From the NCBI GenBank assembly GCA_022563455.1, contig JADFNI010000002.1, positions 1 through 51,790 of the forward strand: DNA of 51,790 bases. Direction: 5' to 3'. The notes beneath the pieces are model-generated. The model searched no databases. It was given only the letters and a program-made list of their open reading frames with translations, and was not told the origin of the DNA. The DNA comes from Nanobdellota archaeon. Lineage in GTDB: Archaea > Nanobdellota > Nanobdellia > Pacearchaeales > GW2011-AR1. Below, one piece after another: positions 18,088 through 37,387 of the stretch (its first letter is position 1; each line of letters begins with the position of its first letter). A program made the position numbers and the translations under genes.

Positions 18088-18300
18088 ATGATTAAAAAAA
18101 GAGATAAGATTATTGAAGAAGTTCGTTCTACTTTGAAAAACTCCAATGGTTTGACAATTACAGAGATTGTTAAAAAAACAAAATTAAATCGCTCCTCTAT
18201 AAGAACTGCTCTTGCAAAACTCGATGGTGCAGATAAAGTTTCTATAAGAAAAATTGGAATGGCTAAAGTTTATTTGTTAAATGGAGAAAAAATGAAATGA
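18088..18300 (+). CDS. 70-aa winged-helix DNA-binding protein, first gene of the surface-protein island
   Basis: GLTITEIVKKTKLNRSSIRTALAKLDGADKVSIRKIGMAKVYLL gives an HTH plus a wing. Paralog of 43046..43264. Confidence 0.7.
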   Translation: MIKKRDKIIEEVRSTLKNSNGLTITEIVKKTKLNRSSIRTALAKLDGADKVSIRKIGMAKVYLLNGEKMK

Positions 18301-18638
18301 AAGAAATAGGCTCTAAAACATTAACAAAAACAGAAAAAGAAATTTTAGAACTAAGTAGAAAAGGATTGACTGTGTTTGCAATTTCTAAGAAATTAAATAT
18401 GCCAGAGTCTACAGTTAGTCACTGCTTAGATAATGTTAATAAAAAATTAAATAATGAGGAACTTGTTGAAGAAGATGTTTGTGGTGAAGAATCTTTGATT
18501 GATACAGGGCGTACTTCATTAGTAACTATTCTTTTATCATTATTTTCATTTTTTACCTTTTTGAATGTTCAACTATTGAGCCCGCAAACTTTGGTTGACT
18601 ATGATAATATTATGTTTAATTGGAGGGCAGATTTCTAA
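18297..18638 (+). CDS. Membrane-anchored LuxR/GerE-type HTH protein
   Basis: LTKTEKEILELSRKGLTVFAISKKLNMPESTVSHCLDNVNKKL fits the LuxR C-terminal HTH pattern. An acidic linker is followed by one TM (SLVTILLSLFSFFTFLNVQLL). ATGA overlap with the upstream wHTH gene. Confidence 0.6.
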   Translation: MKEIGSKTLTKTEKEILELSRKGLTVFAISKKLNMPESTVSHCLDNVNKKLNNEELVEEDVCGEESLIDTGRTSLVTILLSLFSFFTFLNVQLLSPQTLVDYDNIMFNWRADF

Positions 18639-18746
18639 TTCGTATTAAATGGAATGGAAGAAATAAAAAATGATTAGGAAAAACACTCAAACAAAAAGAG
18701 AAAAGAGATATTGTAATGCTCTTGCCGGTTGGAGGCTGGTTCTGCA

Positions 18747-21700
18747 ATGTTTGTAGGATGGAAACATAAACTTAATTTAAAAAAGGGTGGTGCGGAAGGT
18801 TTGTGTTTAAGGTTAGCTGGAGCTGGGTTTTTTAGAGGTAAAAAAGGAGATATTGATGTTAATAAAATCGGCTTTTTAGTTGTTGTATTATTTGCTATAA
18901 TTGGATTTGTTTATTTGGTTAGTGCTTTGCAGGAGATTACGACAGTTACTTTGAATTCTACATCTGGGACTAATTTGACAACTGAGAATTTGACTGCTTA
19001 TGTTAGTCCTTTGAATTCTAGTCAGAAGTATATTTATGATTGGAAGAAAGGCGGAAGTAGTATTGCTGTTTTGAATATGCCAATGGATGGCGGGGCCTTA
19101 GGAAGTGGAGGTACTGTTAGGGATTATAGTGACGGTGCAAATAATGGTACTATTAATGGTGCAACTTATAATGCAACTGGAGGATATGATGGAAAAGGGG
19201 CTTATGAGCTTGATGGTATTACCGCTAATAATCAACATATTCTAACAAGTGTGGATTTGGTTAATACTAGTGCGACTTTTTCTGCTTGGATGAATATTAG
19301 AAGTGATAGGAGTGGTTCAATCATTGGTTCTAGTGGTGGACAAGCTCAATGGAAAACTGGATTATATATTAGGGCAGGTGCAACTGATGATGTTGTTGTA
19401 TGGGGGTGTGATGTTGTTAATGGTATTCCTTTTGATGTTGCAGCTAATTTGAATACTTGGCATCATTTTGCTGCTGTCTATGATTATTCTGCAAAATCAG
19501 TAAGGCTGTTCCATGATGGAAATTATGTAACAACTGATACTTGTATTCTTCGTGATATTAATATGATTGATTTGACTATTGGAAGAGGGGTAGGGGATCT
19601 TTTTAATGGTACTTTGGATGAGGTTTTGGTTTTTAATAAGACTTTGAGTGACGAGCAAGTTAAAGCATTGTATGATAATAGAACTGATTTAATTGTTTCA
19701 CAGGAAACTACTGCCGGTGACATCTGGCAGGTTGAGGCAACTCCTAATGATGGAATTGAAGATGGGACAAGTGTGTTGAGTGGGAATTTGACTATTTCAA
19801 GCCAACCCCCAACAATTGATTCAGTTATTTTAAATTCAACTTCAGAAAATAATTTAACTTCAGAAAATTTAACTGTATATTCAATTAATGTTTCTGATCC
19901 AGAGAATGATAGTGTTAAAGTTATTTATGACTGGAAAAAAGATTCCAGTTCGATTGCTGTTTTGAATATGCCTTTTGAGGGTGGGAGTAACGGGACATTT
20001 ACAAAAGATTATTCTGATTCATCAAATAATGGTACTGTGATTAATGGAACAACTTATAATGCAATTGGAGGATATGATGGGAAAGGAGCTTATGAGTTTG
20101 ATGGTGTTGATGATTTTATTGACTTGGGAGATCCTGTGGATGGTAGTCTTGATTTTGGAGCAAGTGATAGCTTTACTATTTCTGTTTGGATTAAACCGGA
20201 TACTATAAATAATTATCAGAGGATTGTAGATAAGCATCAATCGGTTAACCCTGGATATATGCTCGTTAAATCTTCTGATAAGGCACATTTTTATACAGGT
20301 TCTTCGCTTACTGGATTAACAAGTCTTGTAGCAGGACAGTGGTACCATATTGTTAGTGTACGAGATAAGTCTGCAGGAGTAATACGAATTTATCTTAATG
20401 GTGTCGAGGATGCTACTCCAGTAACAGATACAAGTGGTGATTTGTCTAACACAAAAAGTTTGAATATTGGACGTAATGGTGCAGGAATTCAAAATTTTAA
20501 TGGAACAATTGATGAAGTTATGATATTTAATAGGGCATTAAGTGCTGAACAAATTCTTGCTCTTTATAACAATAGAACTGATTTGATTGTTAGTTCTGAA
20601 ACTACTTTTAATGATGTTTGGTCAGTTGAGGCCACACCTAATGATGGTAGTGCTGATGGAGTGAGTGTGTTGAGTAATAATGTAACCATTCTACAAGCAT
20701 TAGATACTGTTATTTTAAATTCAACACTTGGAACTAATTTGACAACTGAGAACTTAACTGCGTATCCAAATTCATTAGCTGATGGAAAAGTTATTTACAA
20801 TTGGAAGAAAGATGGAAGTTCAATTGTTGTATTGAATATGCCTTTTGAAGGGGGAACTTTAGCTGAAGGAAATACTAAGGTAAAAGATTATTCTGATGGT
20901 TCAAATAATGGATCTGTAATTGGTGCAATTTATCAATCAACTGGAGGCCGCGACGGAAAAGGAGCTTATAATTTCTCTGCAGTTGATAGTGGGCAGATTG
21001 TGATTGCTCCGAATAGTGTTTTGGATTTTGGAAAGAGTAGTTTTAGTGTATCCTTCTGGATGAAATCTGCATCTTGTCCTAGTTCTGAACAGATTGTAGG
21101 AAAGTCTGTTATTTCTAGAGGATGGGCGGTGAAAGTTCAGGGTGGGGGCATCATGTTTATAACTTCTGATAATGCCAATGATTTTGATCAGACTGCTACA
21201 AGTACCAACCCTTGTGATAATTCATGGCACCATATTGTTGCAGTCAGAACTGATGAGGGTAGAAAGAGAATTTATATTGATTCAGTAAATTCTCTTGATT
21301 ACATTGTAGGTGTTATAAGGAATGTCACTCAACCAACAGGAAACTTTACTATCGGTGGAGTTGGAACTACTGATTTTAATGGTTTAGTAGATGAAGTCAT
21401 GGTATTTAATAGGGCATTAAGTGCGGAACAAATTCAAGCAATGTATAACAATAGAACTGATTTGATTGTTAGTCAGGAAACACGTGGGGGAGAAACTTGG
21501 GAAGTAGAAGCAACTCCAAATGATGGAACTAGTGATGGGACTAGTGTTTTGAGTAATAGTTTGACAATTGAATTGCCTTCAATTGATGCTGTTATTTTAA
21601 ATTCAACATCTGGAACAAATTTAACTAATGAGAATTTAACTGCTTATGCGATTAATTTAAGTAATATTTTTGATGGCAAAGTTATTTATGATTGGAAAAA

Positions 21701-24700
21701 AGATTCCAGCTCAATTGCTATTGTGAATATGCCTTTTGATGGAGGAACTTTGGCTGAAGGTAATACTAAGGTAAAAGATTATTCTGATTTTGGAAATAAT
21801 GGTACTGTTAATGGATCAACTTATAACGCAACTGGAGGGTATGATGGGAGAGGGGCTTATGAATTTGATGGAGTTGATGATTACATTGACTTGGGAGATC
21901 CTGCAGATGGTAGTCTTGATTTTGGAGCAAGTGATAGCTTTACTATTTCTGCTTGGATTAAACCGGATGATATAACTGTTTATCAGAGGATTGTAGATAA
22001 GCATGGGGGGGTTAACCCTGGATATATTCTCGCTAAAAGTTCTTCTGGTAGAGCAGAATTTTATACAGGTACTGCGATTGTTGGATCAACAAATCTTGTA
22101 GCAGGACAGTGGTACCATATTGTTGGTGTACGAGATAAGTCTGCAGGAGTAACAAGAATTTATCTTAATGGTGTTGAGGATGCTACCCCATTAATAGATA
22201 CAAGTGCTGATTTGTCTAACACAAAAAGTTTGAATATTGGACGTAATAGTGGAGGATCTCAACATTTTAATGGTTCTATTGATGAAGTTATGGTATTTAA
22301 TAGGGCATTAAGTGCTGAACAAATTCTTGCTCTTTATAACAATAGAACTGATTTGATTGTTAGTCAAGAGACTAATGTAAGTGATGTTTGGTCTGTTTCA
22401 GCAACACCTAATGATGGAACTAGTGACGGGGCGAGTGTGTTGAGTAATAGTTTAACAATTGCTGCTATTGGCGTGAACTTTACTGACCCAACTCCTGCGA
22501 ATGCAACAAGTATTAGTGTGAATAACACATTGATTAATGTGTCTATTAGTGGCAGTTTAGATCAGGCTATCTTTAACTGGAATGGGACTAATTATACTTG
22601 TTACAATAACTTGACATGTGGGGGGACTTCTGATACGGTGCTTACATTAACAAATGCATCGTTGGTTGATTGGAATTTGCTGGTGAATAAAACGAATTTA
22701 ACAAATGCCACTTACACATATTTTGCCTTTGCTAACGAAACTGGAGGAGAGACAGCACAGACAGAAACGAGGTTTTTGACAGTTGATACTGCTCAACCAG
22801 TTGTCAGTTTAGTAAGTCCTATAAATGGAGCGAACTTTGCCGCTGCTCCAAGCAATATTACCTTCACTTGTAATGCGACGAATACAGCTTTGGCCAATAT
22901 TACACTTTATCACAACATTGGTGGAAGCTTTATTGCAAATCAGACGATTAATATAACCGGAACGTTTAATCAAACAAATTTTACTGTAAATAATGTTGCA
23001 AGCGGTACATATACATGGAACTGTTTGGCATCTAATACAGTTGGCAATAACGCCTTTGCCCCGGCTAATTTCACGTTTATTGTTGGCATTACGCTTCCAA
23101 TATATACTAATTTCAATCTAACTTATGGAACTACTAACTTCTCTGCTGTTTCAAATATCTCTAATGTTACTGGAATGGTTTTGGGAACTCAATATGGTAA
23201 AATAGAGTGGCCATCTACCTATAGTGTTAATGCTAAAGGACAGGATTATGATATAAATGTGGAAGTTGGAGAAGTTTTTATTAGTGCGAATACTTCAGGT
23301 TTGCATTCAACCTTTGATGCTTTAACTAATATTACTTTACAGAATGCTGATTGTTCCAATGCCACTGTTTATTATGGAAATAATGTTTATACTTCCAGAC
23401 AGGATATAATAATAGAAAATAATGTTTGTAATGCTACAACTAGTCCTTCATGTACAAATATTGCTTGCAGTGCAAATACTTTAACATTCACGGCATCTGG
23501 TTTTAGCGGCTTTGCTTCAAATGCCTTTTCTAATTTAACTATCTGGGATGAAAATGATGCAAATATGCCTTTCGCTAACTTTTCAAGAAATGTTAATGAA
23601 AATGTAAGTTTCTTTGTTAACTACACTAATATTTCTAGTGAGATAATTTTAAATGCAAATTGTCAGATTGCAATCAATGACACTGCAATTGTAAATAATA
23701 TGACTTATAATTCTTCAATTAGTTTATATAATTATAAAAGAACATTTAATTCCACAGGAATTTTTGATTGGGATGTAACTTGTAATAAGACGGGCTTTGG
23801 AACTTTAACCACAAATGATACAATCTCCATAAATGATGTGACTATTCCAAGTGTGTTTGATTTGTTGCCTATTAGCAATAGTACATTTAATGTTTCAGAC
23901 GTAATTGAAATAGCTGCCAATGTCACAGACAACCTTGCTGTAGATATTGTTTTAGCAAATATAACTCTGCCAAATGGAACCATAAATCAACTTACTCTGG
24001 TGAATACATCAGTAATTACGAACAATGTAACAGATAAATTTAATGTTAGTTTTGTAATACCGAATGTTACTGGGCAATATAATATTACTTTCATAGCAAA
24101 TGATTCTTCAGGTAATGTTAATTCAACTGAGACAACATTCTTTGTCGGAGAGGACGAAACTTCTCCTAGTGTGTTTGATTTGGTTCCTACTGAGAACAGT
24201 ACTTTTAATGTAACTGACGTGATTGAGATTGGAGCTAATGTTACAGATACTTTCGGAGTTGATGTGGTTTTGGCTAATGTAACTTTGCCGAATGGAACGG
24301 TTGAACAATTACTTTTAAGTAATGTAAGTGATTTCTATAATAACAGTTTTACTATTCCGGCATTACTTGGACAGTATAATATTACTTTTATTGCTAATGA
24401 CACTTCTGGAAATGTTAATTCAACTGAGACAACGTTCTTTGTTGGAGAGGACGGAACTTCTCCAAGTGTGTTTGATTTGGTTCCTGTTGAAAATTCGACT
24501 TACAATGTTAGTCAAGTAATTGAAATTGGAGCAAATGTTACAGACAACATTGCTGTTGATATTGTTTTAGTCAATATTACTTTGCCTAATGGAACAATCA
24601 ATCAACTTATTTTGAATAATGTTTCAATTATTAGTAATGATGCTAATGATACATATAACAATAGCTTCATAATCCCTAATATTACTGGACAATATAATAT

Positions 24701-27700
24701 TACGTTTATTGTAAATGATACAAGTAATAATATTAATTCAACTGAAACAACATTCTTTGTTGGTGAAGATATTGTAGTGCCTAGCGTGTTTGATTTAATT
24801 CCTGTTGCTAATAGTACTTTTAATGTCTCAGACATAATACAAATCGGTGCTAATGCAACTGATAACGTTGCTATTGATATCGCCTTTGCAAATGTTACCT
24901 TGCCTAATGGAACTATCCAAAGAGTTGATTTGAATACTTCATATCTTGGTGAAGTTGCAAGTAATGATAAAACTGTATTTACTGTAGTCGTTGAAGCTAA
25001 GAACTCAAGTCATCCACAAAATGGAGTTGGAGATGCTAATGGATATAAAGTTGATGGCGTACAAGGTAAAGAATTAGTTCTTCTTCGTGGAGCTACATAT
25101 AATTTTAGTGTAACAAGTGGAGGTACACACCCATTTTATATTGGAACGAGTCTTGTTGGGCAAGGTGCGGGAGCTTTGACTTCACAGGTTAGTGACGGTA
25201 TACTGTCATTTACACCTAATGCAACAACACCGGATTTAGTTTATTATGCTTGCGGAGTTCATGCAAATATGGGTTGGCAGATTAAAATTGTTGATTCTTT
25301 TGAGATTCCAGCCTTGGTAGGACAGTATAATGTAACATTTGTAGTTAACGATACTTCTGGAAATGTGAATAATACTGAGACTACATTCTTTGTAGGTCAA
25401 GATATTGTTGCTCCGAATGTTGTTGATTTAATTCCATTCAGCAACTCAACATTCAATCAAACATTTACTGTGAATACCAGCATGGAAATTTCAGCTAATG
25501 TAACTGACAATGTATTTGTAGATGCTGTTCTTGTAAACATAACATTGCCTAATGGAACAATTAATCAATTAACTTTAGCAAATGTATCAGTAATCATAAA
25601 CAACGTTATAGGTAAGTTTAATGCTAGTTTCAATGTTCCACTACTAGCTGGGAGATATAATATTACATTTATAGCAAATGACACTTCTGGAAATGTTAAT
25701 TCAACTGAGACAACGTTCTTTGTTGGAGGAGATGGTACGGCTCCGAGTGTATTTGATTTAGTACCTATTGCAAATAGCACATTTAACGTCTCAGATACGA
25801 TAGAAATCGGAGCTAATGTAACTGATAATATTGCTGTTGGAATTGTTCTTGCAAATATAACACTACCTAATGGAACTTCTCAGTTGTTGACCTTGAGTAA
25901 TGTTTCAGTTATTACAGGAAATAATACTGATAGGTTTAATGATAGTTTTGTTATCCCTAATATGACTGGACAATATAATATTACATTCATTGCAAATGAC
26001 ACTTCTGGAAATATTAATTCAACAGAAACTACTTTCTTTGTAGGTCAAGATGTTGTTGCTCCGAATGTTGTTGATTTAAGACCTCTTGCTAATACAACTT
26101 ACAATGTTTCTCAAGTTATTGAGATCGGAGCAAATGTGACCGACGACATAGCCGTGGACACGGTTCTTGCAAATGTAACTTTGCCTAACGGAACTGTTGA
26201 AGAGTTGATCTTAAGTAATGTTAGTGATTTCTATAATAGTAGCTTCACCATTCCTTCATTGGTTGGACAATATAACATAACATTTATCGCAAATGATAGC
26301 TCTAACAATATTAACAGTACAGAAACTACATTCTTTGTTGGAATAGATGTTGTTGCTCCGAATGTTGTTGATTTAAAACCCGTAGCTAACTCAACATTTA
26401 ATGTAAGTGATGTAATTGAAATTTCCGCAAATGTAAGCGATAATATTGCCGTTGATACAATAACGATTAATATTACACTGCCAAACACCACTGTTCAGCA
26501 GTTTAGTTTGCAGAATGTTAGCGTTGTTATAAATAATGTTAGTGATAAGTATAATATAAGTTATACAATCCCTGCATTGCTTGGCCAGTATAATATTACT
26601 TTCATAGCGAATGATACCTTTAATAATTTGAATATAACGGAGACGACTTTCTTTGTTGGCGTTGATAATATCCCTCCAACATTTACAAATGTAAGTTGTG
26701 TGCCAAATCCTACAGGCATTAATTCAACTATAGATTGTAATGCAACGATAACTGATAATCTTGCTGTTGGTAGTATATTTGCCAATGTTACCTTGCCAAA
26801 TAGTTCTGTTTTGGTACAGGGTGTATCTAATGTTGGGGAGAATTATACTTTTAGATTTAATACAACAGAAGAAGTCGGAATTTATAATGTGTTATGGGTT
26901 GCAAATGATTCTAAAGGAAATAGTGCAAATGCGACTTCTAGTTTTGAGATTATGAATCCGATAATTGTTATTTTGGGATGTGCTCCAAATCCAGCAAATA
27001 TTTCTCAAAGTGTGGAATGTTTGACTAACATTACTACAGGCACTTCTCAGTCATTGGACAGTGTCTTAGCGAATATTACATTACCAAACGGAACTGTCTT
27101 ATTTCCAAGTGTGACAAATGTGAGCAGTATTTATAATGTTACATTTAGTAATACAAATTTGGTTGGATTCTATAATGTAACTTGGTTTGCGAATGATTCA
27201 GTTGGATCTATTTCAGTAAAGAACGAGAGTTTTAGAGTGATTGAATTTACAAAGCCTTCAATTTTTGGTTTAATTCCTATAGCAAATAGTACATTTAATG
27301 TTTCACAAACAATTGAAATTGCAGCTAACGCAACAGATGACACTGAGATTGCATCTGTATCGGCAAATATTACACTTCCGAATGGAACAGTCACACAACT
27401 TATATTAAGTAATGTATCTGTTGTAACAAATACAAGTTCTGATAAATACAATGCAAGCTTTTTAATTCCCACAGTTAGTGGGCAATATAACATTACTTTT
27501 ATTGCAACAGATACTTCAGATAATGTTAATAGCAGTGAAACAACATTCTTTAATACAGTGTCATCATTTAGCGTTGGAAATATACAATGCAGTAATGATA
27601 CGGCGAATTACTTTGGCTGTGATACATTAAGTTATGGAACAAATATTACTCATATAAGAGCAACATGTACAAATCTTGCTGCAAATATAGATGAAGTTAG

Positions 27701-30700
27701 ATTTACATTGTTTAACGAAGAAGATAATGTAAATTATGTTAACAATGTATCATCGACATTTAATGTTTCAGAGATATTTACTTATAATTCTTCATTTGTA
27801 TTACAAGATTCAGGTAATTGGACATTGAGTGTTAGTTGTAGTTCTGGAGGCAATTTGGAAAGTAGTGCTGTGAACTTTAGCTTACCATTTGGTAATATTA
27901 GTATTGCACTTCTTGACCCTTTGGCTGATATGAGTGTTTTATTAAATGAGTTCTTTACTTTCAGTGCGAATGTAACTTGTGTTGGTGGAGAGTGTGGAGT
28001 TGTGAATGTTACTTTGGATCCTGAGGAGGTAATTTGTAGCGAAGTTGAAACTTGTGAGAATGTTTCAAATATGAATTGTATTAATGAAACCACCAAGAGT
28101 TGTGAGACTGTTTGTAATAATCAGACAGTAATAGATTGTACTTCAACAATAGATGAAATTTGTATTGATGTGTGTATTGAATATGAAACCATCAATGGAA
28201 CTTCGGGAGATTGTTTGAGTTATGCACCGCAGTGTGATAATGTTACTAGTGAAATTTGTAATGAAACGGTAACTGAGGTTTGTGAGAAAATTAATTGTAC
28301 AAAAGAGGTTGTAGAAAATTGTACTGAGATAATTGAAGAATCTTGCACTGTTGAAGAGGTTTGTACGACTATAGAATTTGATGAGGAGAGTTCTGTAGAA
28401 ATGGGTTCTATTGAAATTATTCTAAATTCTAGTATTGGAGACGCTAAGATAGTTCTTGATCAAAATGTGACCGTCTTGAATAAAGAATTAATTATTACTG
28501 GGGAGCTTGGTCTTGGTATATCTACAGCAAGCGTTGAAGATAAAGAATTTACTTATCGAACTCCAATTTTGGCTGTCGAGTTAGAAAATGATACTGGAGC
28601 AATGGTTACATTACCGAAGTATTTAGAAGATGATTTAGAAGTCATAATAAAATGTGACGATTGGAACTTTACTGGGGAGCGGTGCAGCAGCGAATGGTAC
28701 GTTTACGCAACGGTTGATGAATTAGAACAGAATATTGACAGCGTAACATTCGCTGCTGATTCTTTTAGTGCTTATGCTGGTGGAGATGTAACTGGAGGGG
28801 ATACAGCATTCTTGATAATATGGGATGAGAATGATATTGGTATGCCAAACAGCGTGGCTGATACTACAAGTGTAAGAATTGTAAATGAAAATGCCACCTT
28901 CTATGCAGATTATAAGATCGCAACGAACGCAACTTCGATTAGTGACGGTACTTGTACAATTGATATAAATGGAACTAGCAATAATATGATTTACTCATCT
29001 GGATATTATAATTATGTTCGGAACATGACTGTTGAAGGGGCATATGGATATACTATTAGCTGTACTTCAAATACCTATACTGATTTGAATGCAAGTGACT
29101 CTATTGTTATAGGAAAATTAAGTAATGAAACTAAGGGTGCTATTTCAACTATTGTTGGAGATATACCATTTTATACTACTTCAAATAACCCTTTCGTTAC
29201 AAGTAATTTATATGGTGGAGGAAATGAGGTTGTTAGTTGGAATGTGAATGCAACTGGAGTTTTGAATAAAGTCTATGACTTCTTTATTGAATTAATTGGA
29301 ACTTATGTACCTTTAACTAACTCGACTCATGTGAACATTGGGATTACTGCTAATGATACAACCTCACCAGTATTTATTTCGAGGACTATATCTCCAGCAG
29401 CGGTTATTAATGGCTCGAGTGCGATAATAAATGCTGATGTAAGTGATAACATACAAGTAGATGAAGTTTGGGCTAATGTGACTCTTCCGGATAATTCAAC
29501 TGAGGTTATAACTGCCGGTTCTTTGCCTTATAATTTTACTAATACTAGTTTGATTGGAATCTATAATGTAACATTCTATGCAAATGATACTTCGGGGAAT
29601 AATGCAACAACTACAAAGACATTTGAGGTTGCATTGCCATTAAATCTGACAATGAATGTTAGTGTTGATGTGAATGTATCTGTCAATGTTTCCACAAATG
29701 TTAATTTCATTGCCTATGTTGCGGGAACAAAAGATATAATTGAAGAAAGACTAAATATTACAGGTTCTGAATCAGTGCAATTGCCGAATGTTCCTGTCGA
29801 TTTGTTCTTCGATGCAACTTTTAATAATTCAAATCTTCTAACTACTTTGTTTGAAATTAATTTAAGTGACAATGAAAATACTTCTGTTACATTTGGGAAT
29901 CCTACTGTAGCTGGATTTTTAGTTACTTATGGTATTGAAACTGATTTTAATTTTACAAATGCACAATCTGAATTCTCTTATTCTGGAACTAGTTTCACGA
30001 TAGAGAGTAACTTACAATTACATAAGTGTGATAATTTTGCTATTGGTTCTGGGACATGTGTAGGTGGATTTAATGATATTACTAGTAGTGCCCAGCAAGA
30101 TACAGTTAATGACAAATTTATTTACAATACTACTTCATTTAGTGGATTTGGTATTGTGGAATTTACTGCTACCACTACTCCAGAATCAGATAGTGAGGGT
30201 GAGGGTGGAGGCGGTGGAGCTCTTGTAATCCTTGCAAAAGAAGAAGTTGAAGCAGTTGAAGCACTCCCTGAGCAGCTATTCGATATTACATTCAACTTAG
30301 ATGATACTACAATTCAAAATATTGGTGAACTTTCAGGGATTCTTACGTTTGAGAGTTTCGGTACGGTTCCAACTCCAGTGGACTTAACGTTTACTATTTT
30401 AGATGCGGCAGGACGCGAGGTTTATCGAGAGAAGGGAAATATTACAGTTACAACTGAAGAAATTTTGAGATGGAATTATGAAGAGAGGGGACTTGGTGCT
30501 CTTGTTGATGGTAAATACGTGGCAGTTCTTACTACCTTGTATAATGTGGATGTAAAAGACGAGTTTAGAATTGAGTTTGAGATTGGGACTGAAAAGGGAT
30601 TTTTCTCACTTATTACTGGTAATGCTATTAAATGGATTGGAGGAAATGGTAAGTGGTGGCTAACTGGGATTGCAGGTATTATCTTGGTTATTGGTTTAGC

Positions 30701-30749
30701 TTGGTGGTTAATTGTTATGAGGAAAGGAAGTGAGGGGATGAAAGGATGA
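18747..30749 (+). CDS. Giant (~4,000 aa) modular cell-surface protein. Order of parts: N-terminal TM/signal anchor, 4 LamG (concanavalin-A-like lectin) modules, Ig-like domains, ~12 copies of a ~98-aa Ig-like repeat (one carrying a cupredoxin-like insert), a Cys/Glu-rich module, further beta-sandwich domains, a shared C-terminal anchor module and a TM
   Basis: Single uninterrupted 12-kb ORF. ATG 18747 has GGAGG 11 nt upstream; the track start is TTG 18729. Hydrophobic IGFLVVVLFAIIGFVYLVSA near the N-terminus. LamG modules each contain GGYDGKGAYEFDG...W.H......IY.NG.....FNG.IDEV.VFNRALSAEQI. C-terminal TM LTGIAGIILVIGLAWWLIV. Confidence 0.9.
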   Translation: MFVGWKHKLNLKKGGAEGLCLRLAGAGFFRGKKGDIDVNKIGFLVVVLFAIIGFVYLVSALQEITTVTLNSTSGTNLTTENLTAYVSPLNSSQKYIYDWKKGGSSIAVLNMPMDGGALGSGGTVRDYSDGANNGTINGATYNATGGYDGKGAYELDGITANNQHILTSVDLVNTSATFSAWMNIRSDRSGSIIGSSGGQAQWKTGLYIRAGATDDVVVWGCDVVNGIPFDVAANLNTWHHFAAVYDYSAKSVRLFHDGNYVTTDTCILRDINMIDLTIGRGVGDLFNGTLDEVLVFNKTLSDEQVKALYDNRTDLIVSQETTAGDIWQVEATPNDGIEDGTSVLSGNLTISSQPPTIDSVILNSTSENNLTSENLTVYSINVSDPENDSVKVIYDWKKDSSSIAVLNMPFEGGSNGTFTKDYSDSSNNGTVINGTTYNAIGGYDGKGAYEFDGVDDFIDLGDPVDGSLDFGASDSFTISVWIKPDTINNYQRIVDKHQSVNPGYMLVKSSDKAHFYTGSSLTGLTSLVAGQWYHIVSVRDKSAGVIRIYLNGVEDATPVTDTSGDLSNTKSLNIGRNGAGIQNFNGTIDEVMIFNRALSAEQILALYNNRTDLIVSSETTFNDVWSVEATPNDGSADGVSVLSNNVTILQALDTVILNSTLGTNLTTENLTAYPNSLADGKVIYNWKKDGSSIVVLNMPFEGGTLAEGNTKVKDYSDGSNNGSVIGAIYQSTGGRDGKGAYNFSAVDSGQIVIAPNSVLDFGKSSFSVSFWMKSASCPSSEQIVGKSVISRGWAVKVQGGGIMFITSDNANDFDQTATSTNPCDNSWHHIVAVRTDEGRKRIYIDSVNSLDYIVGVIRNVTQPTGNFTIGGVGTTDFNGLVDEVMVFNRALSAEQIQAMYNNRTDLIVSQETRGGETWEVEATPNDGTSDGTSVLSNSLTIELPSIDAVILNSTSGTNLTNENLTAYAINLSNIFDGKVIYDWKKDSSSIAIVNMPFDGGTLAEGNTKVKDYSDFGNNGTVNGSTYNATGGYDGRGAYEFDGVDDYIDLGDPADGSLDFGASDSFTISAWIKPDDITVYQRIVDKHGGVNPGYILAKSSSGRAEFYTGTAIVGSTNLVAGQWYHIVGVRDKSAGVTRIYLNGVEDATPLIDTSADLSNTKSLNIGRNSGGSQHFNGSIDEVMVFNRALSAEQILALYNNRTDLIVSQETNVSDVWSVSATPNDGTSDGASVLSNSLTIAAIGVNFTDPTPANATSISVNNTLINVSISGSLDQAIFNWNGTNYTCYNNLTCGGTSDTVLTLTNASLVDWNLLVNKTNLTNATYTYFAFANETGGETAQTETRFLTVDTAQPVVSLVSPINGANFAAAPSNITFTCNATNTALANITLYHNIGGSFIANQTINITGTFNQTNFTVNNVASGTYTWNCLASNTVGNNAFAPANFTFIVGITLPIYTNFNLTYGTTNFSAVSNISNVTGMVLGTQYGKIEWPSTYSVNAKGQDYDINVEVGEVFISANTSGLHSTFDALTNITLQNADCSNATVYYGNNVYTSRQDIIIENNVCNATTSPSCTNIACSANTLTFTASGFSGFASNAFSNLTIWDENDANMPFANFSRNVNENVSFFVNYTNISSEIILNANCQIAINDTAIVNNMTYNSSISLYNYKRTFNSTGIFDWDVTCNKTGFGTLTTNDTISINDVTIPSVFDLLPISNSTFNVSDVIEIAANVTDNLAVDIVLANITLPNGTINQLTLVNTSVITNNVTDKFNVSFVIPNVTGQYNITFIANDSSGNVNSTETTFFVGEDETSPSVFDLVPTENSTFNVTDVIEIGANVTDTFGVDVVLANVTLPNGTVEQLLLSNVSDFYNNSFTIPALLGQYNITFIANDTSGNVNSTETTFFVGEDGTSPSVFDLVPVENSTYNVSQVIEIGANVTDNIAVDIVLVNITLPNGTINQLILNNVSIISNDANDTYNNSFIIPNITGQYNITFIVNDTSNNINSTETTFFVGEDIVVPSVFDLIPVANSTFNVSDIIQIGANATDNVAIDIAFANVTLPNGTIQRVDLNTSYLGEVASNDKTVFTVVVEAKNSSHPQNGVGDANGYKVDGVQGKELVLLRGATYNFSVTSGGTHPFYIGTSLVGQGAGALTSQVSDGILSFTPNATTPDLVYYACGVHANMGWQIKIVDSFEIPALVGQYNVTFVVNDTSGNVNNTETTFFVGQDIVAPNVVDLIPFSNSTFNQTFTVNTSMEISANVTDNVFVDAVLVNITLPNGTINQLTLANVSVIINNVIGKFNASFNVPLLAGRYNITFIANDTSGNVNSTETTFFVGGDGTAPSVFDLVPIANSTFNVSDTIEIGANVTDNIAVGIVLANITLPNGTSQLLTLSNVSVITGNNTDRFNDSFVIPNMTGQYNITFIANDTSGNINSTETTFFVGQDVVAPNVVDLRPLANTTYNVSQVIEIGANVTDDIAVDTVLANVTLPNGTVEELILSNVSDFYNSSFTIPSLVGQYNITFIANDSSNNINSTETTFFVGIDVVAPNVVDLKPVANSTFNVSDVIEISANVSDNIAVDTITINITLPNTTVQQFSLQNVSVVINNVSDKYNISYTIPALLGQYNITFIANDTFNNLNITETTFFVGVDNIPPTFTNVSCVPNPTGINSTIDCNATITDNLAVGSIFANVTLPNSSVLVQGVSNVGENYTFRFNTTEEVGIYNVLWVANDSKGNSANATSSFEIMNPIIVILGCAPNPANISQSVECLTNITTGTSQSLDSVLANITLPNGTVLFPSVTNVSSIYNVTFSNTNLVGFYNVTWFANDSVGSISVKNESFRVIEFTKPSIFGLIPIANSTFNVSQTIEIAANATDDTEIASVSANITLPNGTVTQLILSNVSVVTNTSSDKYNASFLIPTVSGQYNITFIATDTSDNVNSSETTFFNTVSSFSVGNIQCSNDTANYFGCDTLSYGTNITHIRATCTNLAANIDEVRFTLFNEEDNVNYVNNVSSTFNVSEIFTYNSSFVLQDSGNWTLSVSCSSGGNLESSAVNFSLPFGNISIALLDPLADMSVLLNEFFTFSANVTCVGGECGVVNVTLDPEEVICSEVETCENVSNMNCINETTKSCETVCNNQTVIDCTSTIDEICIDVCIEYETINGTSGDCLSYAPQCDNVTSEICNETVTEVCEKINCTKEVVENCTEIIEESCTVEEVCTTIEFDEESSVEMGSIEIILNSSIGDAKIVLDQNVTVLNKELIITGELGLGISTASVEDKEFTYRTPILAVELENDTGAMVTLPKYLEDDLEVIIKCDDWNFTGERCSSEWYVYATVDELEQNIDSVTFAADSFSAYAGGDVTGGDTAFLIIWDENDIGMPNSVADTTSVRIVNENATFYADYKIATNATSISDGTCTIDINGTSNNMIYSSGYYNYVRNMTVEGAYGYTISCTSNTYTDLNASDSIVIGKLSNETKGAISTIVGDIPFYTTSNNPFVTSNLYGGGNEVVSWNVNATGVLNKVYDFFIELIGTYVPLTNSTHVNIGITANDTTSPVFISRTISPAAVINGSSAIINADVSDNIQVDEVWANVTLPDNSTEVITAGSLPYNFTNTSLIGIYNVTFYANDTSGNNATTTKTFEVALPLNLTMNVSVDVNVSVNVSTNVNFIAYVAGTKDIIEERLNITGSESVQLPNVPVDLFFDATFNNSNLLTTLFEINLSDNENTSVTFGNPTVAGFLVTYGIETDFNFTNAQSEFSYSGTSFTIESNLQLHKCDNFAIGSGTCVGGFNDITSSAQQDTVNDKFIYNTTSFSGFGIVEFTATTTPESDSEGEGGGGGALVILAKEEVEAVEALPEQLFDITFNLDDTTIQNIGELSGILTFESFGTVPTPVDLTFTILDAAGREVYREKGNITVTTEEILRWNYEERGLGALVDGKYVAVLTTLYNVDVKDEFRIEFEIGTEKGFFSLITGNAIKWIGGNGKWWLTGIAGIILVIGLAWWLIVMRKGSEGMKG
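18940..22465 (+). repeat. Four tandem ~880-nt coding modules (LamG domain plus the conserved NRTDLIVSQET..GD.W.VEATPNDG..DG.SVLSN.LTI tail)
   Basis: Modules start near 18940, 19810, 20700 and 21582, each opening with V(I/T)LNST.G.NLT.ENLT.Y. Modules 2 and 4 are near-identical at the DNA level. A fifth copy is in the next gene (~32695..33590). Confidence 0.85.
23838..27555 (+). repeat. Array of 11 tandem ~290-310-nt coding repeats (Ig-like ~98-aa units); a 12th divergent copy lies at ~29350..29640
   Basis: Recurrent P(S/N)V(F/V)DL.P..NSTFNVS..IEI.ANVTDN.AVD.VLANITLPNGT......GQYNITFIANDTSGNVNSTETTFFVG.D. Confidence 0.85.
24927..25297 (+). other. Cupredoxin-like (type-1 copper site-like) ~123-aa domain inserted into Ig-like repeat 4
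   Basis: The repeat is split. Its first half ends ..ANVTLPNGTIQRV and its second half resumes FEIPALVGQYNVTFVVNDTSGNVNNTETTFFVG. The insert contains GGTHPFYIGT (His codon 25128-30) and LVYYACGVHANMGWQIKIV (Cys 25251-53, His 25260-62, Met 25269-71), a C-x2-H-x2-M spacing. Confidence 0.5.
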
Positions 30750-30760: not shown

Positions 30761-33700
30761 ATGATGAACAAAGATATAAGGAGGATTGGAGTTTTCGCAA
30801 TTTCTCTGGTTGTAATAATGGCATTTTCTTCTGCTAGTAATTTTACAGAAGGAATTGTAGAAGGATGTGAAGTAGTTGAGACTTGCGAGGATGTGCTTGT
30901 TGGCGTTTTGTGTGTGAATAAGACTATAGAGACTTGTGAGGACGTTTGTAGTATTGAGGTTGTCTCTTTATGTCACGAGAAAATTAGTGAAGTATGTGAG
31001 GACGTTTGTTTCGAAACTTGTGAAAATATAGAGAATTGTGAAACCCAATGTAGTGGAGAGGGAGCAGAAGGGGAAGAGATTTGTGGAGAAGTTTGTGAAA
31101 CTGAATCGGTTTGTGAAGAAGTTTGTAGTGAGCAATGTAATGAAGTGATTAATGAGATTTGTAAGGATGCCCAGAAAAAGATTTGTGAACATATCAATTG
31201 TTTCGAGGAATTTATTGAAAGTTGCGACGGTGTTATTGAGCAAAAGGAATGTGTAAGTGAAACTATTTGTAATGTTCCAAATGCTAGAAGTGTTAATAAT
31301 GAAAATGAATCAGATAGGACTTCTCTTAGGAGATCAGACTTGATTAAAACAACTCTAGATCTTATTATGGATAAAATTGAGTCTTTTGTTGAGAGCATTG
31401 TTACACTTAGTGCTACTTTAGTTGATGGAAATAATACGCCAGTTTCTGATAAAAAAATAGAGTTTTATTCTTATGAGACAATTATTGGAAGTGAGTTTAC
31501 AAATATGGATGGTATCGCGAAGATTGATTGGAACACATCCCTGTTTCAAATTGGAGTGTATCGTGTTAGTGCGAGATTTTCAGAAGATAGATTATTCGAG
31601 AATTCTTCTATGAGTTTAAATATTTTAATTGAGAATTTTGATGGTTCTAATAAATATAAATATTCTAACTATTCTGAGGTCAATGAAAGTTTGAGGCTTA
31701 TTAATAACAATAACAATAACAATAACATAACTTTGAATAATATAAATAATATAACTAATAATATAACTTTGAACGTAACCATTACAAACGAAACTGGATC
31801 ATTTTATTGGAATCATGAAATTGTTAATGAATATGGAGATGTTAATGAGAGTGTTAGGGTTAGATTAAAAGTTCCAAAGAGGTTAAAGCAGATAACTGAT
31901 GAGATTGATTTTGAGAAAATTAAGTCAAATAATACTCGTGATAAAGAAAAAGTTAGGCTATTAAAAGAGATTTTAGAAGAAGAATTAGAATTTGAATATG
32001 AGAAAGTCGAGTTTATTTCTGAAATTAGCGCAATTGAAAAAATTGAATTTAACGATTTGGAAATAATTGACTATACAATCTCTTTAGGTATTGAAGAGGT
32101 AAATGATTCTAATTTTGTTCAGAGTTATGCAATTGATCCCTCTCAACTGAACTTTACAGATGCTGTGGTTACTGTAATTGCTAAGGGTACAGAGTTGTAT
32201 AAATGTAAGGACTGGAATTTTTCTTTGGGGGAGTGTTATGGAGAATGGAAGCTTTTTAAGACAGGATTAGTTCTTGGAGAGGAATATTCATTTATCTTAA
32301 CTGCGAATGATCCTGGATTTGGAGAGATTATTGCTATTGATGCTGTACATTTAGATTCTAATTATAGTTTTATTTCTAATGTTTTTGAAGAAGTTAGGGA
32401 GAAAGATAATTTTTGGTCGGAGACTATTTCTGATGAGCACTATGTGAGAGTTACTTATGAAAAAAACTTGACTAATGGAAATGTTATTGATGTTTTTGTT
32501 AGAGGTGGTGGAGGATTTGAAGTTTATGAAAAAGACAAAAATTTAAGTTTGGGAAGTTCTAGCGAGATTGATTCTTTTAACGGTGAGTGGAAATATATTA
32601 CTTTGGAAAATGTGGTTGGATCCAGTGATATTTTTGATTTTAAGATTAGTGGAAGTTTGGAATTTGATTATATCCATGATGCTCCACCTAATTTAACTTC
32701 AGTTGTTTTGAATTCAACTCTTGGAACAAATTTAACAACAGAAGATTTGACTGTTTATACAGATCAGGATGATAATAGTTCTTTGAAGTTGATTTACAAC
32801 TGGAAAAGAAATAGCAGTTTTATTACTGTTTTGAACATGCCTTTTGAGGGGGGGAGTAATTCAACTTTTACAAAAGATTATTCTGATAATGCAAATAATG
32901 CAACTGGTTTTAATGGTTCTTTATGGCAATCTAATGGGGGATATGATGGCAAAGGGACATATAAATTTAATAGAAGTGCAGAGACTTATTTTTCAGTTCC
33001 TGATTTTGCTTATTCAGATAATTTTACAATTAGTTTTTGGGTTAAAATTCCGGCACTTTCAGGATCATCTTGGCATTATGTATATAGCCATGGTACATGG
33101 AATTCATTTAATAATGTAAGAATTTATTTTGCAGAATCAAATGGAAATTTATTTGCACAGATGAGGGATTCTGATGATGATGCTGCAATGAGTTTGATCA
33201 AAGGAGGTCTTGACGATGGAAATTGGCATTTTATAACTTTAACTGTTGGGCAAGGCATAGGGGCTGCATTTTATGTTGATGGTGTTTTCGATAGTTCAAA
33301 TAATACAGTTGGCACAGACGCCTTTAATCCTGGAACAGATCTTTTTATTGCAAAAAGGAGTGATTTAGCTAATAGATATTTTAATGGCTGGGTTGATGAT
33401 TTAAGAGTTCATAATAGTATATTATCTTTGGACCAAATTATTTTATTAAATAATTCTCAACCTAATAAAATACATTCAAGTGAAACTTCTGTTGGAGATG
33501 TTTGGCAATCATGTGTAATTCCCAATGATGGAATTGAAGATGGAAATAAAGTTTGTAGTAATAATTTAACTATTTTAAGTCCTTCTTCGGGAAGTGTTTC
33601 TATCAGGATTATCCAGAGTAGTGATGATGCTGAGGAGGCAGTTGATGGTCCTTTTGTTGGAGATACTGAAATTGATAGTAGCGATTTGGAGATGATTGAA

Positions 33701-35758
33701 GACTTGGATTTTCAAGAGGGTAATCAAACAATAGGATTAAGGTTCCAAAATGTTGAAATTCCACAGGGCGCTGTTATAGATAATGCTTATATTGAGTTTG
33801 AAGTTGATGAAACAAATACTGTTACTACAAATTTAAGAATTTATGGTGAAGATGAAGATAATCCTGCCACATTTTTTAATGTTGATAATAACATAACACC
33901 AAGAACAAAAACTACTGCTTTTGCTTCCTGGGATAATATTCCTGCTTGGAATACTGTAAGTGAGAAACAACAAACCGTTGACATTAGCAATGTTGTTAAG
34001 GAGATAGTGGACAGATCTGGATGGTCTTCTGGAAATTCGATGGTATTTATTATTAATGGAACAGGTAAAAGAGTGGCCGAAGCATGGGATGGAGAGTCTG
34101 CGAATGCTCCTTTGTTAATTGTTAATTGGACTACGGTTTCTGACGACCCTGTTGTAAGTTTAAATTCTCCTGCAAATAGTGTTGTTCTTAATTCTTCACA
34201 GGTGGCTTTCAATTGTTCAGCTACAGATAATAATGGATTGCAAAATATGACTCTTTATTTATCTGAATCTAATGGTTCTAATGGTTCTGTTGAGTATCTT
34301 TCAAATTATTCTGTCTGGAAATACAATGACAGCAATATTTATCCTGCTGCTGATTGGTTCAATGAGGGTTTTGACGATTCTTCTTGGCCTAATGGTGCTG
34401 CGAGAATTGGTGTTGAGACTGTTAGTGGTTGGTTAAATACTACTTTGGATGGTGGAGGGGATACTTATCCTTCATATTATTTTAGAACTACATTTAATGT
34501 TAATTCTGTTTTAGATGTAATTAATATGTCATTTAATATTGATTATGATGATGGTTATGTTGTTTATTTGAATGGTTATGAGATAAACAGAAGTAATAGT
34601 ACTATAGGGGTTGATGAAACAAATCATTCTGCTTTAACTACTGCAACGCATAACTGGGCATGTGATGGAGACACTCCTCCTACTTGTACTCCTGGAGGAA
34701 ACAGTGATCCAGTTTGGCCAAAAATCACTCTTAATTCAACACATCTTAATTATCTTAATGACGGCGAAAATACTTTAGCTGTTTTAATTAAACAGAGAAC
34801 TGTAGCTAGCAGTGATTCTATGCTTATGCTTAATCTTTATGGTTATGAGCGACAGTATCCTGATTTACAGGCAAATGAAACTAAAAATATTTCTGGAACA
34901 AGCAATGAAAGTATTTTTACATTGAATCTGAATAACAGTTATTATTCCTGGAACTGCCTTGCTTATGATTCTTCTGGAAATAGTGATTGGGGAGATAGCA
35001 ACAGAAGTTTGAAGGTTAATTCTTCAAATAACTCTCCGCAAATAACTCAGATCCAACCTATTGGTGCTATAACATTATCCCAGTTTACTACAAAAAATGT
35101 AAATATTTTATTTAATGTTACAGATACAGACGGCTTTACTGATTTGAATGATTCAAAATCATGGTGTGCTTTAACTAAATCAGGAGAAGCGACAAGAAAC
35201 TCAACATCTTGTACTGCTCAAAATCAATCTGGAAATGATTTAGTTTATAATTGTTCTTTGGATATGCAGTTCTATGATGATGCTGGAATATGGAATGTAA
35301 CCTGTTTTGCAGAGGATATTAATGGAGCAAGTGATACTAATAATACAGAAACAGCAACGGTGAATGCTTTGAATTATGTAACTCAGAATTTATTAGATCT
35401 AAATTGGTCAAGTTTAACTCCTGGCAATAATAGTGAAGAGGCTCAATCTCCTCTGGTCTTTACTAATGGTGGTAATCAGAATTATCCTAACTTTAATATA
35501 AGTTCACAGAACGCTACCTTTAATTCAAACAAAATAACTCACGACCGATTTTTGGTTGATAATGAAACAAGCCAGTCATCTGGTCAGATTCCCTTGGCTG
35601 ATTCAGGAGTTATTTGGAATGATGGTTCTCTAACAAAATGTGTTTCTCCTTGCTCATCAAATAGTACTGAAGCTGCATATTTTTATGTTGATACTCCAAC
35701 AGGGATAATAGGAGGTGTTTATGCAAGCATTGCAAATTGGACAATCTTATTATCTTAA
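30761..35758 (+). CDS. 1,665-aa secreted modular protein. Order of parts: Sec-type signal peptide, Cys/Glu-rich module, Asn-rich low-complexity tract, one LamG module, an SSDDAEE-motif domain, Ig-like and W.Y..DDGYVVYLNG beta-sandwich domains, and a C-terminal domain paralogous to the next gene. No TM anchor
   Basis: Signal-like IGVFAISLVVIMAFSSASN. About 22 Cys between nt 30863 and 31273. The LamG module VVLNSTLGTNLTTEDLTVY..GGYDGKGTYKF..W.H..L.....AFYVDG. The C-terminal 240 aa align to the ORF 35844..36707. Confidence 0.9.
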   Translation: MMNKDIRRIGVFAISLVVIMAFSSASNFTEGIVEGCEVVETCEDVLVGVLCVNKTIETCEDVCSIEVVSLCHEKISEVCEDVCFETCENIENCETQCSGEGAEGEEICGEVCETESVCEEVCSEQCNEVINEICKDAQKKICEHINCFEEFIESCDGVIEQKECVSETICNVPNARSVNNENESDRTSLRRSDLIKTTLDLIMDKIESFVESIVTLSATLVDGNNTPVSDKKIEFYSYETIIGSEFTNMDGIAKIDWNTSLFQIGVYRVSARFSEDRLFENSSMSLNILIENFDGSNKYKYSNYSEVNESLRLINNNNNNNNITLNNINNITNNITLNVTITNETGSFYWNHEIVNEYGDVNESVRVRLKVPKRLKQITDEIDFEKIKSNNTRDKEKVRLLKEILEEELEFEYEKVEFISEISAIEKIEFNDLEIIDYTISLGIEEVNDSNFVQSYAIDPSQLNFTDAVVTVIAKGTELYKCKDWNFSLGECYGEWKLFKTGLVLGEEYSFILTANDPGFGEIIAIDAVHLDSNYSFISNVFEEVREKDNFWSETISDEHYVRVTYEKNLTNGNVIDVFVRGGGGFEVYEKDKNLSLGSSSEIDSFNGEWKYITLENVVGSSDIFDFKISGSLEFDYIHDAPPNLTSVVLNSTLGTNLTTEDLTVYTDQDDNSSLKLIYNWKRNSSFITVLNMPFEGGSNSTFTKDYSDNANNATGFNGSLWQSNGGYDGKGTYKFNRSAETYFSVPDFAYSDNFTISFWVKIPALSGSSWHYVYSHGTWNSFNNVRIYFAESNGNLFAQMRDSDDDAAMSLIKGGLDDGNWHFITLTVGQGIGAAFYVDGVFDSSNNTVGTDAFNPGTDLFIAKRSDLANRYFNGWVDDLRVHNSILSLDQIILLNNSQPNKIHSSETSVGDVWQSCVIPNDGIEDGNKVCSNNLTILSPSSGSVSIRIIQSSDDAEEAVDGPFVGDTEIDSSDLEMIEDLDFQEGNQTIGLRFQNVEIPQGAVIDNAYIEFEVDETNTVTTNLRIYGEDEDNPATFFNVDNNITPRTKTTAFASWDNIPAWNTVSEKQQTVDISNVVKEIVDRSGWSSGNSMVFIINGTGKRVAEAWDGESANAPLLIVNWTTVSDDPVVSLNSPANSVVLNSSQVAFNCSATDNNGLQNMTLYLSESNGSNGSVEYLSNYSVWKYNDSNIYPAADWFNEGFDDSSWPNGAARIGVETVSGWLNTTLDGGGDTYPSYYFRTTFNVNSVLDVINMSFNIDYDDGYVVYLNGYEINRSNSTIGVDETNHSALTTATHNWACDGDTPPTCTPGGNSDPVWPKITLNSTHLNYLNDGENTLAVLIKQRTVASSDSMLMLNLYGYERQYPDLQANETKNISGTSNESIFTLNLNNSYYSWNCLAYDSSGNSDWGDSNRSLKVNSSNNSPQITQIQPIGAITLSQFTTKNVNILFNVTDTDGFTDLNDSKSWCALTKSGEATRNSTSCTAQNQSGNDLVYNCSLDMQFYDDAGIWNVTCFAEDINGASDTNNTETATVNALNYVTQNLLDLNWSSLTPGNNSEEAQSPLVFTNGGNQNYPNFNISSQNATFNSNKITHDRFLVDNETSQSSGQIPLADSGVIWNDGSLTKCVSPCSSNSTEAAYFYVDTPTGIIGGVYASIANWTILLS

Positions 35759-35843
35759 AAGGAGAAAAGTGAAAACAAATCAAAGATTTTCATTCACACA
35801 AATGTGGATGAAGGTTAATTTTAATGAAAGGAGGTAAAAAGAC

Positions 35844-36707: not shown

Positions 36708-36736
36708 GTGACAATAGACAAACTGCATAAGTTTGA

Positions 36737-36748
36737 TTTTTTATTTTT
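36737..36748 (+). terminator. Oligo-T tract (ttttttattttt) 30 nt after the stop, a possible archaeal-type terminator
   Basis: Read directly. It lies in one of the few >100-nt intergenic gaps in the island. Confidence 0.3.
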
Positions 36749-36832
36749 AAGTTAAGAAAGGATCTTAGGGTCTTGGTAGCTAGAGCTGTCCCCCCTGTAA
36801 GAGAAAACTAGAGTGAAAGGAGGTATTAAAGA

Positions 36833-37387
36833 ATGATAATAAATAAGAACATAAAATTGCAAGAACTAGTTGTTTTAGTTAGCTTGGCTTTTTTACTTTT
36901 GCCTAGTGTGAGTGCTTTTGCAAATACCTTTCTCGAGGATAAAACAATGCATCTTTGGAAAGGAGAAATAGGAAAGTATTGTATTTACTTACAGAATACT
37001 GGAGAAGAAGATATTGTACAAGTTATTAGGATTTTCGAAGGAGAGGAATATATAAGGAACCTGGATGAAATTGATGGAGAGTTTGATGTTTCTGTCGGGA
37101 CAATTAGTGATCAGTTGCCTATCTGTATGAAATTAAAATTACCTAGGAGTGTCGAAAGGGATGAGAAGTATGCTATAAGTTACGGAGTGGCAGGTTCCTC
37201 GTCTAATAATGAGGAAGGATTGGTGTCTTTTGCACCAATTCAAATAAGAGAAACATTCTATCTAACAGAAAGATTAGATGAAAAACCGCGTTCTAATACA
37301 ATTTACGTTGTTTCTGGACTGACACTAATTACTATTCTAGGGATAGGATATTACTACAGACGTAGGAGGAAGAAATTAAGAATATGA
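36833..37387 (+). CDS. Signal-peptide protein with a single beta-sandwich-like domain and a C-terminal TM anchor (Arg-rich tail)
   Basis: AGGAGG Shine-Dalgarno. Signal LVVLVSLAFLLLPSVSA. C-terminal IYVVSGLTLITILGIGYYY followed by RRRRKKLRI. The stop overlaps the next start (ATGA). Confidence 0.65.
   Translation: MIINKNIKLQELVVLVSLAFLLLPSVSAFANTFLEDKTMHLWKGEIGKYCIYLQNTGEEDIVQVIRIFEGEEYIRNLDEIDGEFDVSVGTISDQLPICMKLKLPRSVERDEKYAISYGVAGSSSNNEEGLVSFAPIQIRETFYLTERLDEKPRSNTIYVVSGLTLITILGIGYYYRRRRKKLRI

Follow-up and report, generated by a model that had tools for sequence, protein, structure and literature searches.

The stretch of DNA analysed here (the window) comprises 51,790 nucleotides (nt), positions 1 to 51,790 of the forward strand of contig JADFNI010000002.1 from a Nanobdellota archaeon (assembly GCA_022563455.1). 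It contains the gene of a giant surface protein (18729..30749, plus strand), which translates into 4006 amino acids (aa) from a TTG codon, with an alternative ATG start at 18747; all features of this gene given below are on the plus strand. The protein carries eight tandem repeats of about 100 aa with an immunoglobulin-like (Ig-like, E-set) character, R1–R8 (23841..26660, aa 1705–2644), each with the end TETTFFVG, and a ninth TETTFFVG copy occurs at 27246–27557 (aa 2840–2943). The units of the array R1–R9 have diverged in their nucleotides and cannot be detected as tandem repeats at the DNA level. The fourth repeat is interrupted by a domain of 109 aa (24969..25295), which we identify as a cupredoxin of Pfam family PF25489 with a predicted type-1 (blue) copper ligand set.

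Repeat 4 (aa 2013–2223, nt 24765–25397) is collinear with the other copies of R1–R9 on both sides of a single block that is absent from them (aa 2081–2189). According to the repeat alignment and to the strand map of a model of R3, the N-terminal part of the repeat (24765..24968, 68 aa) consists of strands A–D and the D–E loop, and the C-terminal part (25296..25397, 34 aa, SFEIP...TETTFFVG) of the rest of strand E together with strands F and G. A preliminary description of this DNA had assigned to the insert about 123 aa at 24927–25297, had placed it exactly between the two halves of the repeat and had noted its lack of resemblance to the repeat. The last point stands, as the block has no counterpart in the other repeats, and the translation of 24927–25297 yields the peptide quoted there. 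The boundaries, however, have to be revised: the first 14 residues, DLNTSYLGEVASND, are repeat 4's own loop, the end coordinate lies 2 nt beyond the codon boundary, and the interruption divides the repeat into 68 residues before it and 34 after it, and so does not lie at the midpoint.

The uninterrupted repeat R3 was modelled on an alignment of 43 natural repeat sequences and is predicted as a seven-strand sandwich (strands 7–12, 24–32, 37–45, 51–55, 68–75, 82–91 and 101–105) with a mean predicted local distance difference test score (pLDDT) of 94.2; Foldseek matches it to Ig-like/E-set accessory modules and to the S-layer protein HPI of Deinococcus. The sole weakly predicted part is the D–E loop (59–67; block pLDDT 72), where the length of the repeats also varies, R2 and R7 being 7 aa shorter. 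The insertion point is equivalent to positions ~69–71 of R3, at the end of this loop, so that the first residues of strand E are replaced and the strand resumes as SFEIP. Prediction confidence is lowest and repeat length varies just where the insert enters, so that on the modelled structure the domain lies within a tolerant flexible loop, or at its border, two-thirds along repeat 4. The repeat alignment shows the host repeat continuing on both sides and the separate model of R3 puts the insertion in a loop, which is the arrangement of a nested domain.

Repeat arrays are prone to misassembly and the nearest relatives of the insert are bacterial, two facts that would fit an assembly or annotation artefact in which a fragment of a bacterial cupredoxin gene had been joined chimerically into a repetitive archaeal gene. 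Logan contigs of one run (X1) indeed join other repeats of the array (24485 to 25656 and 24719 to 24403). Against this, a separately assembled Logan contig of 904 nt, from a marine-sediment run and a different assembler, is identical to 24531–25434 with zero differences and even depth, and because it spans both junctions of the insert, these junctions are real. The reading frame is unbroken, both parts of repeat 4 are intact, and the composition of the insert (GC content 0.385, 0.156 at third codon positions) is in line with that of equal-sized windows of the host gene (0.344±0.03 and 0.21±0.046). An artefact is thus extremely unlikely. The odd joins in run X1 (24400–25800) point to repeat-number variants or to assembler collapse elsewhere, and leave the insert-bearing stretch unaffected.

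The insert matches the Pfam model PF25489 ("At5g54830-like domain") with 41.8 bits (E 1.2e-10) when taken alone and with 30.9 bits within the full protein, both above the curated gathering threshold of 27 bits. When 1.84 billion cluster representatives (50% identity clusters) were searched exhaustively with phmmer, 1540 relatives were retrieved at E<=1e-3, of which 290 reach E<=1e-10, the best at 3.7e-95, and many of the relatives have 2–10 copies of PF25489 each; a word-indexed homology search with the insert alone returned no matches. Since the family score exceeds its cutoff and 1540 relatives were found, the motif and the domain cannot be attributed to chance. An AlphaFold2 model of the insert, built on a 51-sequence alignment (A1), has eight β-strands, a pLDDT of 98.1 and a predicted template modelling score of 0.89. 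All Foldseek matches to this model in the PDB at E<=0.01 are cupredoxin or multicopper-oxidase-type domains, with template modelling scores (TM-scores) of 0.45–0.63. Rusticyanin is the top match (E 2e-4, TM 0.60–0.63), and SufI, laccases, plastocyanins, nitrosocyanin, the purple cupredoxin of Nitrosopumilus and pseudoazurin are among the others. The best match of a profile search, PDB 8a14_A, was rejected, as its expression tag (ENLYFQS + GSHMTMG, with the tobacco etch virus protease site) mimics 'LYYQC..H..MG'. The cupredoxin fold is defined as a Greek-key β-sandwich with roughly eight strands and a match to solved cupredoxins, and it is well supported by the modelling that the insert is a complete cupredoxin domain and an ordinary member of the catalogued family PF25489.

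Four residues of the insert are predicted, from conservation and alignment, to ligate copper: His54 (aa 2134, 25128..25130) as the N-terminal ligand directly before strand 5, Cys95 (aa 2175, 25251..25253) as the thiolate ligand that closes strand 7, and, in the loop leading on to strand 8, His98 (aa 2178, 25260..25262) and Met101 (aa 2181, 25269..25271), the latter as the axial ligand. On the strand map of the model this placement is the canonical cupredoxin arrangement. The set corresponds to that of type-1 sites, with a His upstream and Cys, His and Met at the transition from strand 7 to strand 8, all aligned on amicyanin. A CuA site as in Cox2 or NosZ has two Cys in a C-x3-C-x3-H-x2-M loop; the insert has a single Cys and does not belong to that class.

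Conservation was determined in 206 domain copies taken from the best 150 phmmer proteins, 205 of which were aligned. His54 is found in 199/205, Cys95 in 197/205, and His98 and Met101 in 193/205 each (94–97%), which makes the four the most conserved polar positions of the family, and 183 of the 206 copies retain all of them. Cys2175 is moreover the only cysteine between aa 1685 and 2657, about 970 residues, and the repeat array is otherwise cysteine-free. A fifth conserved histidine, His15 (aa 2095, 25011..25013), lies in a motif K-x3-H-P-x-F-G-x-G in the loop after strand 1 and is kept in 145 of the 173 copies that have the N-terminal extension; there is also a short form of the domain, which is devoid of the His15 segment altogether.

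The preliminary description had proposed a type-1 site from the pattern H...C-x2-H-x2-M and had drawn the parallel to amicyanin. The motif is present as H54...C95-x2-H98-x2-M101, its ligand set and loop spacing match those of amicyanin, and the amicyanin loop itself was verified in 1AAC as C92-T-P-H95-P-F-M98. It had staked this reading on the fold and on the conservation of the four residues, and both tests favour it: the model and its top structural matches are of cupredoxin type, and the residues chosen are the conserved ones. We regard the assignment of His2134, Cys2175, His2178 and Met2181 as a predicted type-1 copper ligand set as well supported by model and alignment.

About 11% of the family copies lack at least one ligand, which implies that the fold can persist without the site, and this bears on a different explanation: that the insert is a metal-independent structural or adhesive module that, like ephrins, uses the fold only to offer a surface for binding, its ligand residues being relics. 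Copies that have lost ligands, such as that in P0029 ('YYASLLNLNVGW'), would be precedents, the host, a stalk built of Ig-like and LamG modules, resembles an adhesin, and the window contains no partner genes. In the insert, however, the four ligands are intact, at precisely the most conserved polar positions of the family, and a lone cysteine in ~970 extracellular residues is hard to explain if it has no ligand role. We therefore consider a purely adhesive function rather improbable.

Beyond the array, the giant protein begins with a hydrophobic segment, KIGFLVVVLFAIIGFVYLVSALQ (18864..18932, from a Kyte-Doolittle scan), which probably acts as a signal peptide or anchor, and ends with a predicted transmembrane anchor, WLTGIAGIILVIGLAWWLIVMRK (30657..30725, from a hydrophobicity scan), followed by a short basic tail. 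Along its 4006 aa there are 247 N-x-S/T sequons, and Pfam recognises, besides several families of bacterial Ig-like domains, four LamG modules. The host would be a giant protein, anchored at its C-terminus and capable of heavy glycosylation, on the surface of a DPANN (Woesearchaeota-like) archaeon of marine sediment. The four LamG modules (Laminin_G_3), located at 18900–22500, are each preceded by a conserved segment of ~60 aa (…VILNSTSGTNLTTENLTAY…IYDWKKDGSSIAVLNMPF…), module and segment together amounting to a second and larger repeat unit at the N-terminus. An acidic stretch at aa 3084–3212 (27978–28364) contains 18 cysteines spaced by ~8 residues (…CENVSNMNCINETTKSCETVCNNQTVIDC…), and no Pfam family matched it.

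A search of all six frames of the window with the hidden Markov model (HMM) of the family found exactly one copy of PF25489. Homologues of the stalk were collected with a 1000-aa segment, giving 136 proteins, of which the named ones belong to Woesearchaeota, Nanoarchaeota or Aenigmarchaeota. The preliminary description had suggested a survey of orthologues for the insert; in the best 120 of these 136 DPANN homologues neither a cupredoxin domain nor any C..H..M motif occurs (0/120). The sole match in a scan of genome contigs was a locus of a groundwater Woesearchaeota metagenome-assembled genome (L002), the nearest among the species-representative genomes, which has a similar repeat array with 38% identity and in which the family HMM finds no insert, and a scan of metagenome contigs returned no close orthologues. 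The absence from all 120 homologues argues for a lineage-specific gain. A recent horizontal transfer was rejected, as GC content and third-position GC of the insert lie inside the distribution of the gene's own windows. We infer a single, non-recent and compositionally ameliorated acquisition in this lineage. Its source may have been bacterial, as the circumstantial evidence of the nearest relatives suggests.

That a redox or copper-binding domain is grafted into a loop of a surface stalk had been called unusual, and this has to be divided: for the family the word is too strong, because PF25489 is often a module of giant surface proteins, but the nesting and the uniqueness among the DPANN homologues do set the window copy apart. 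Many members of the family have 48–58% identity to the insert and share with it the consensus ...RG.TY.F......HPFYI.T...G......FTP....P..LYYQC..H.NMGW.I.IV. They occur as stand-alone proteins of 140–200 aa, as tandem modules in surface proteins of the type IX secretion system (T9SS) or glycosylphosphatidylinositol type, or as fusions, whereas the insert is a single copy, nested in another domain, in a DPANN archaeon. The stand-alone members are mostly annotated as 'hypothetical', a few being labelled 'plastocyanin' by JGI. What is new is therefore the nested position and the presence in a DPANN giant surface protein, the family itself being already catalogued; it is named after the Arabidopsis cytochrome b561 / DM13 / DOMON protein At5g54830.

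The company kept by PF25489 gives indications of its chemistry. Fusions were found with DOMON (P0040), with the 'electron transfer' domain DM13 (P0026) and with a bacterial-like globin (P0034). The copies in P0013 reach 23.5 bits against PF00127 (Copper-bind, cutoff 21.2), which bridges the two families; the window copy is not thereby a member of PF00127. The nearest relatives of the insert (53–57% identity, E down to 3.7e-95) are in giant T9SS proteins with a Por_Secre_tail and SprB repeats (such as P0001, P0002, P0003 and P0005), which contain 2–4 copies of PF25489, preceded by SprB repeats and each followed by a PF11617 'Cu-binding_MopE' motif. One of them, P0002, additionally has a CHRD domain. 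In our literature searches no description was found of the three-part unit SprB – PF25489 – MopE, nor any paper connecting a cupredoxin with both DM13 and DOMON, and the papers citing At5g54830 contain nothing on a PF25489-type domain. By association, the DOMON, DM13, globin and MopE partners suggest copper or redox chemistry for the family.

Some stand-alone PF25489 proteins (145–147 aa) are encoded on the same strand as a β-propeller protein of 315–329 aa with Pfam matches to Vgb_lyase/SGL, 23–73 bp downstream of it. Three such pairs were seen (L003:5031-6444, L005:4954-6438 and L006:4946-6438) in neighbourhoods that are otherwise unlike each other. The two genes may code for a dehydrogenase and its cupredoxin electron acceptor.

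The MopE motifs also bear on the function of the insert, as MopE-type proteins are linked to copper acquisition. The domain could be a module for copper capture or buffering that sequesters, stores or hands over the metal at the surface and does not transfer electrons; that the closest relatives alternate with PF11617 motifs would agree with this, as would the distal and solitary position of the domain, which has no visible redox partner. On the other hand, a cupredoxin scaffold that combines a His2-Cys-Met set with the loop of amicyanin bears the signature of electron-transfer centres, the trafficking sites of CopC and CusF are rich in Met and His and have no buried thiolate, and the fusions to DOMON, DM13 and globin point toward redox chemistry. 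Copper capture as the sole role is, in our judgement, unlikely.

We favour the interpretation, which we consider probable, that the insert is a cupredoxin with a type-1 ligand set, gained once and spliced into the D–E loop, which serves as a local one-electron copper centre. It would bind one copper ion and cycle between Cu(II) and Cu(I). In solved cupredoxins such as plastocyanin the copper site sits at one pole and the two chain termini at the other, so that insertion into a loop through these termini would leave the copper face pointing outward, away from the stalk. There it could exchange electrons locally with a partner on another cell, a mineral or a solute, or bind such a partner through the face of the copper site. 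A local action is suggested because the insert is the only cofactor site and lies ~1780 residues from the membrane anchor.

The preliminary description had also raised extracellular electron transfer, and a conduit that relays electrons between the environment or a host and the archaeon's own membrane would at least agree with an extracellular domain of redox type. However, the domain is present in one copy in the protein and in the window, the giant protein has neither a CxxCH nor a second C..H..M motif, and many Ig-like modules separate the domain from the anchor. Biological electron tunnelling has a range of ~1.4 nm between centres, and a single centre cannot bridge a stalk of ~1780 residues. 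A multiheme or other cofactor chain was rejected as well, as CxxCH occurs in no open reading frame of at least 80 aa in the window. Transfer to the own cell is accordingly disfavoured, and we regard a conduit as very improbable. Redox sensing and copper capture, which the preliminary description named as well, are to be taken as hypothetical roles.

Several observations weigh against a local copper centre. Copper binding has been demonstrated for no member of PF25489, and the literature search found no paper that mentions the family. No solved structure in the PDB can be detected from the insert by sequence, either with phmmer or with a profile search, and the window copy matches no classic copper-protein model of Pfam; with PF00127 there is no match even at E<=1. 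The TM-scores of the structural matches are moderate, and the hhalign probability against the single amicyanin sequence is just 27.6%. The first ligand His is followed by Pro (Asp in a subgroup), in place of the usual Asn of plastocyanin and amicyanin. To these are added the loss of ligands in part of the family, as described above, and the window, which encodes no redox partner.

If the insert does bind copper, a mononuclear blue-copper centre would be added to the surface equipment of DPANN archaea, in which respiratory chains are generally absent and which are presumed to attach to hosts by means of giant surface proteins. A far-reaching reading would be that PF25489, with at least 1540 clusters at 50% identity in bacteria, eukaryotes and DPANN archaea, constitutes a large and so far overlooked class of blue-copper modules, which giant surface proteins display for one-electron chemistry outside the cell. 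In this DPANN episymbiont the nested copy would then serve as an interface for redox exchange upon contact with a host cell or mineral. We consider this combination doubtful, and its probability low; were it true, electrons would be swapped with, for example, a surface protein of the host, a new mode of interaction between a symbiont of reduced metabolism and its partner. Apart from this, attention is drawn to a large Pfam family with a purely descriptive name, for which signature, model and partners point to extracellular copper redox chemistry, and the nested copy offers a clean natural case of domain insertion into an Ig-like loop, as well as a small, well-bounded construct.

The genes around the giant gene include those for KaiC, a UbiA prenyltransferase, an FAD-dependent oxidoreductase and a homocitrate-synthase-like protein, a setting consistent with an archaeon. 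Just upstream lies a gene with a GerE/LuxR-type helix-turn-helix (18297–18638). Directly downstream and on the same strand (30761–42837) there follow a large surface protein of 1665 aa, with weak, sub-threshold matches to Big_3_5 and LamG, two CarboxypepD_reg proteins and an fn3 protein of 722 aa, which together make up a surface-protein gene cluster. Six paralogous dCache_1 sensor proteins (~300–450 aa) are encoded at 5180–6094 and 44554–51617, mostly in tandem and with solute-binding proteins (SBP_bac_8, NMT1) in between; so dense an array of sensors is unusual for a DPANN-like genome.

Among known systems, the Bacteroidota-type T9SS proteins resemble the window protein in being giant and located at the cell surface. 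They differ in that their domains are serial and not nested, that they are not archaeal and are secreted by way of a Por_Secre_tail, and that the MopE motif which Pfam finds in them is missing from the window protein.

Amicyanin of Paracoccus denitrificans is the closest parallel at the ligand loop. The amicyanin and poplar plastocyanin sequences used as queries are identical to 1AAC and 1PLC, respectively. In the hhalign alignment with amicyanin (E 6.5e-4) His54 pairs with His53, Cys95 with Cys92, His98 with His95 and Met101 with Met98, the order of the ligands and the C-x2-H-x2-M loop being identical and free of gaps, and the two are of similar length (105 aa vs 109 aa). This likeness is confined to the ligand loop and to the profile level; phmmer against the PDB returned nothing, and the insert is not a member of the amicyanin family. 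Amicyanin is a soluble periplasmic carrier and the insert a nested module. Amicyanin has methylamine dehydrogenase as its partner, whereas no gene resembling this enzyme is found in the window. His37, Cys84 and His87 of plastocyanin can likewise be aligned to the insert, with a plastocyanin loop that is two residues longer.

Rusticyanin of Acidithiobacillus ferrooxidans (1RCY), the best structural match, has a sequence identity of ~16% to the insert. It is an extracytoplasmic type-1 copper protein that also does without the usual Asn after the first His, and it has 155 aa, an N-terminal extension and a Cys-x4-His-x4-Met loop.

A further comparison is with the orphan CuA-type (nosZ/Cox2-like) cupredoxins that have been reported in marine DPANN archaea (PMC10936187). 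These, too, are extracytoplasmic, and the DPANN genomes in which they occur are missing the remainder of a respiratory chain. They are separate small proteins with a binuclear C-x3-C-x3-H site, whereas the set predicted in the insert is of the mononuclear type-1 kind and is carried inside a giant stalk protein.

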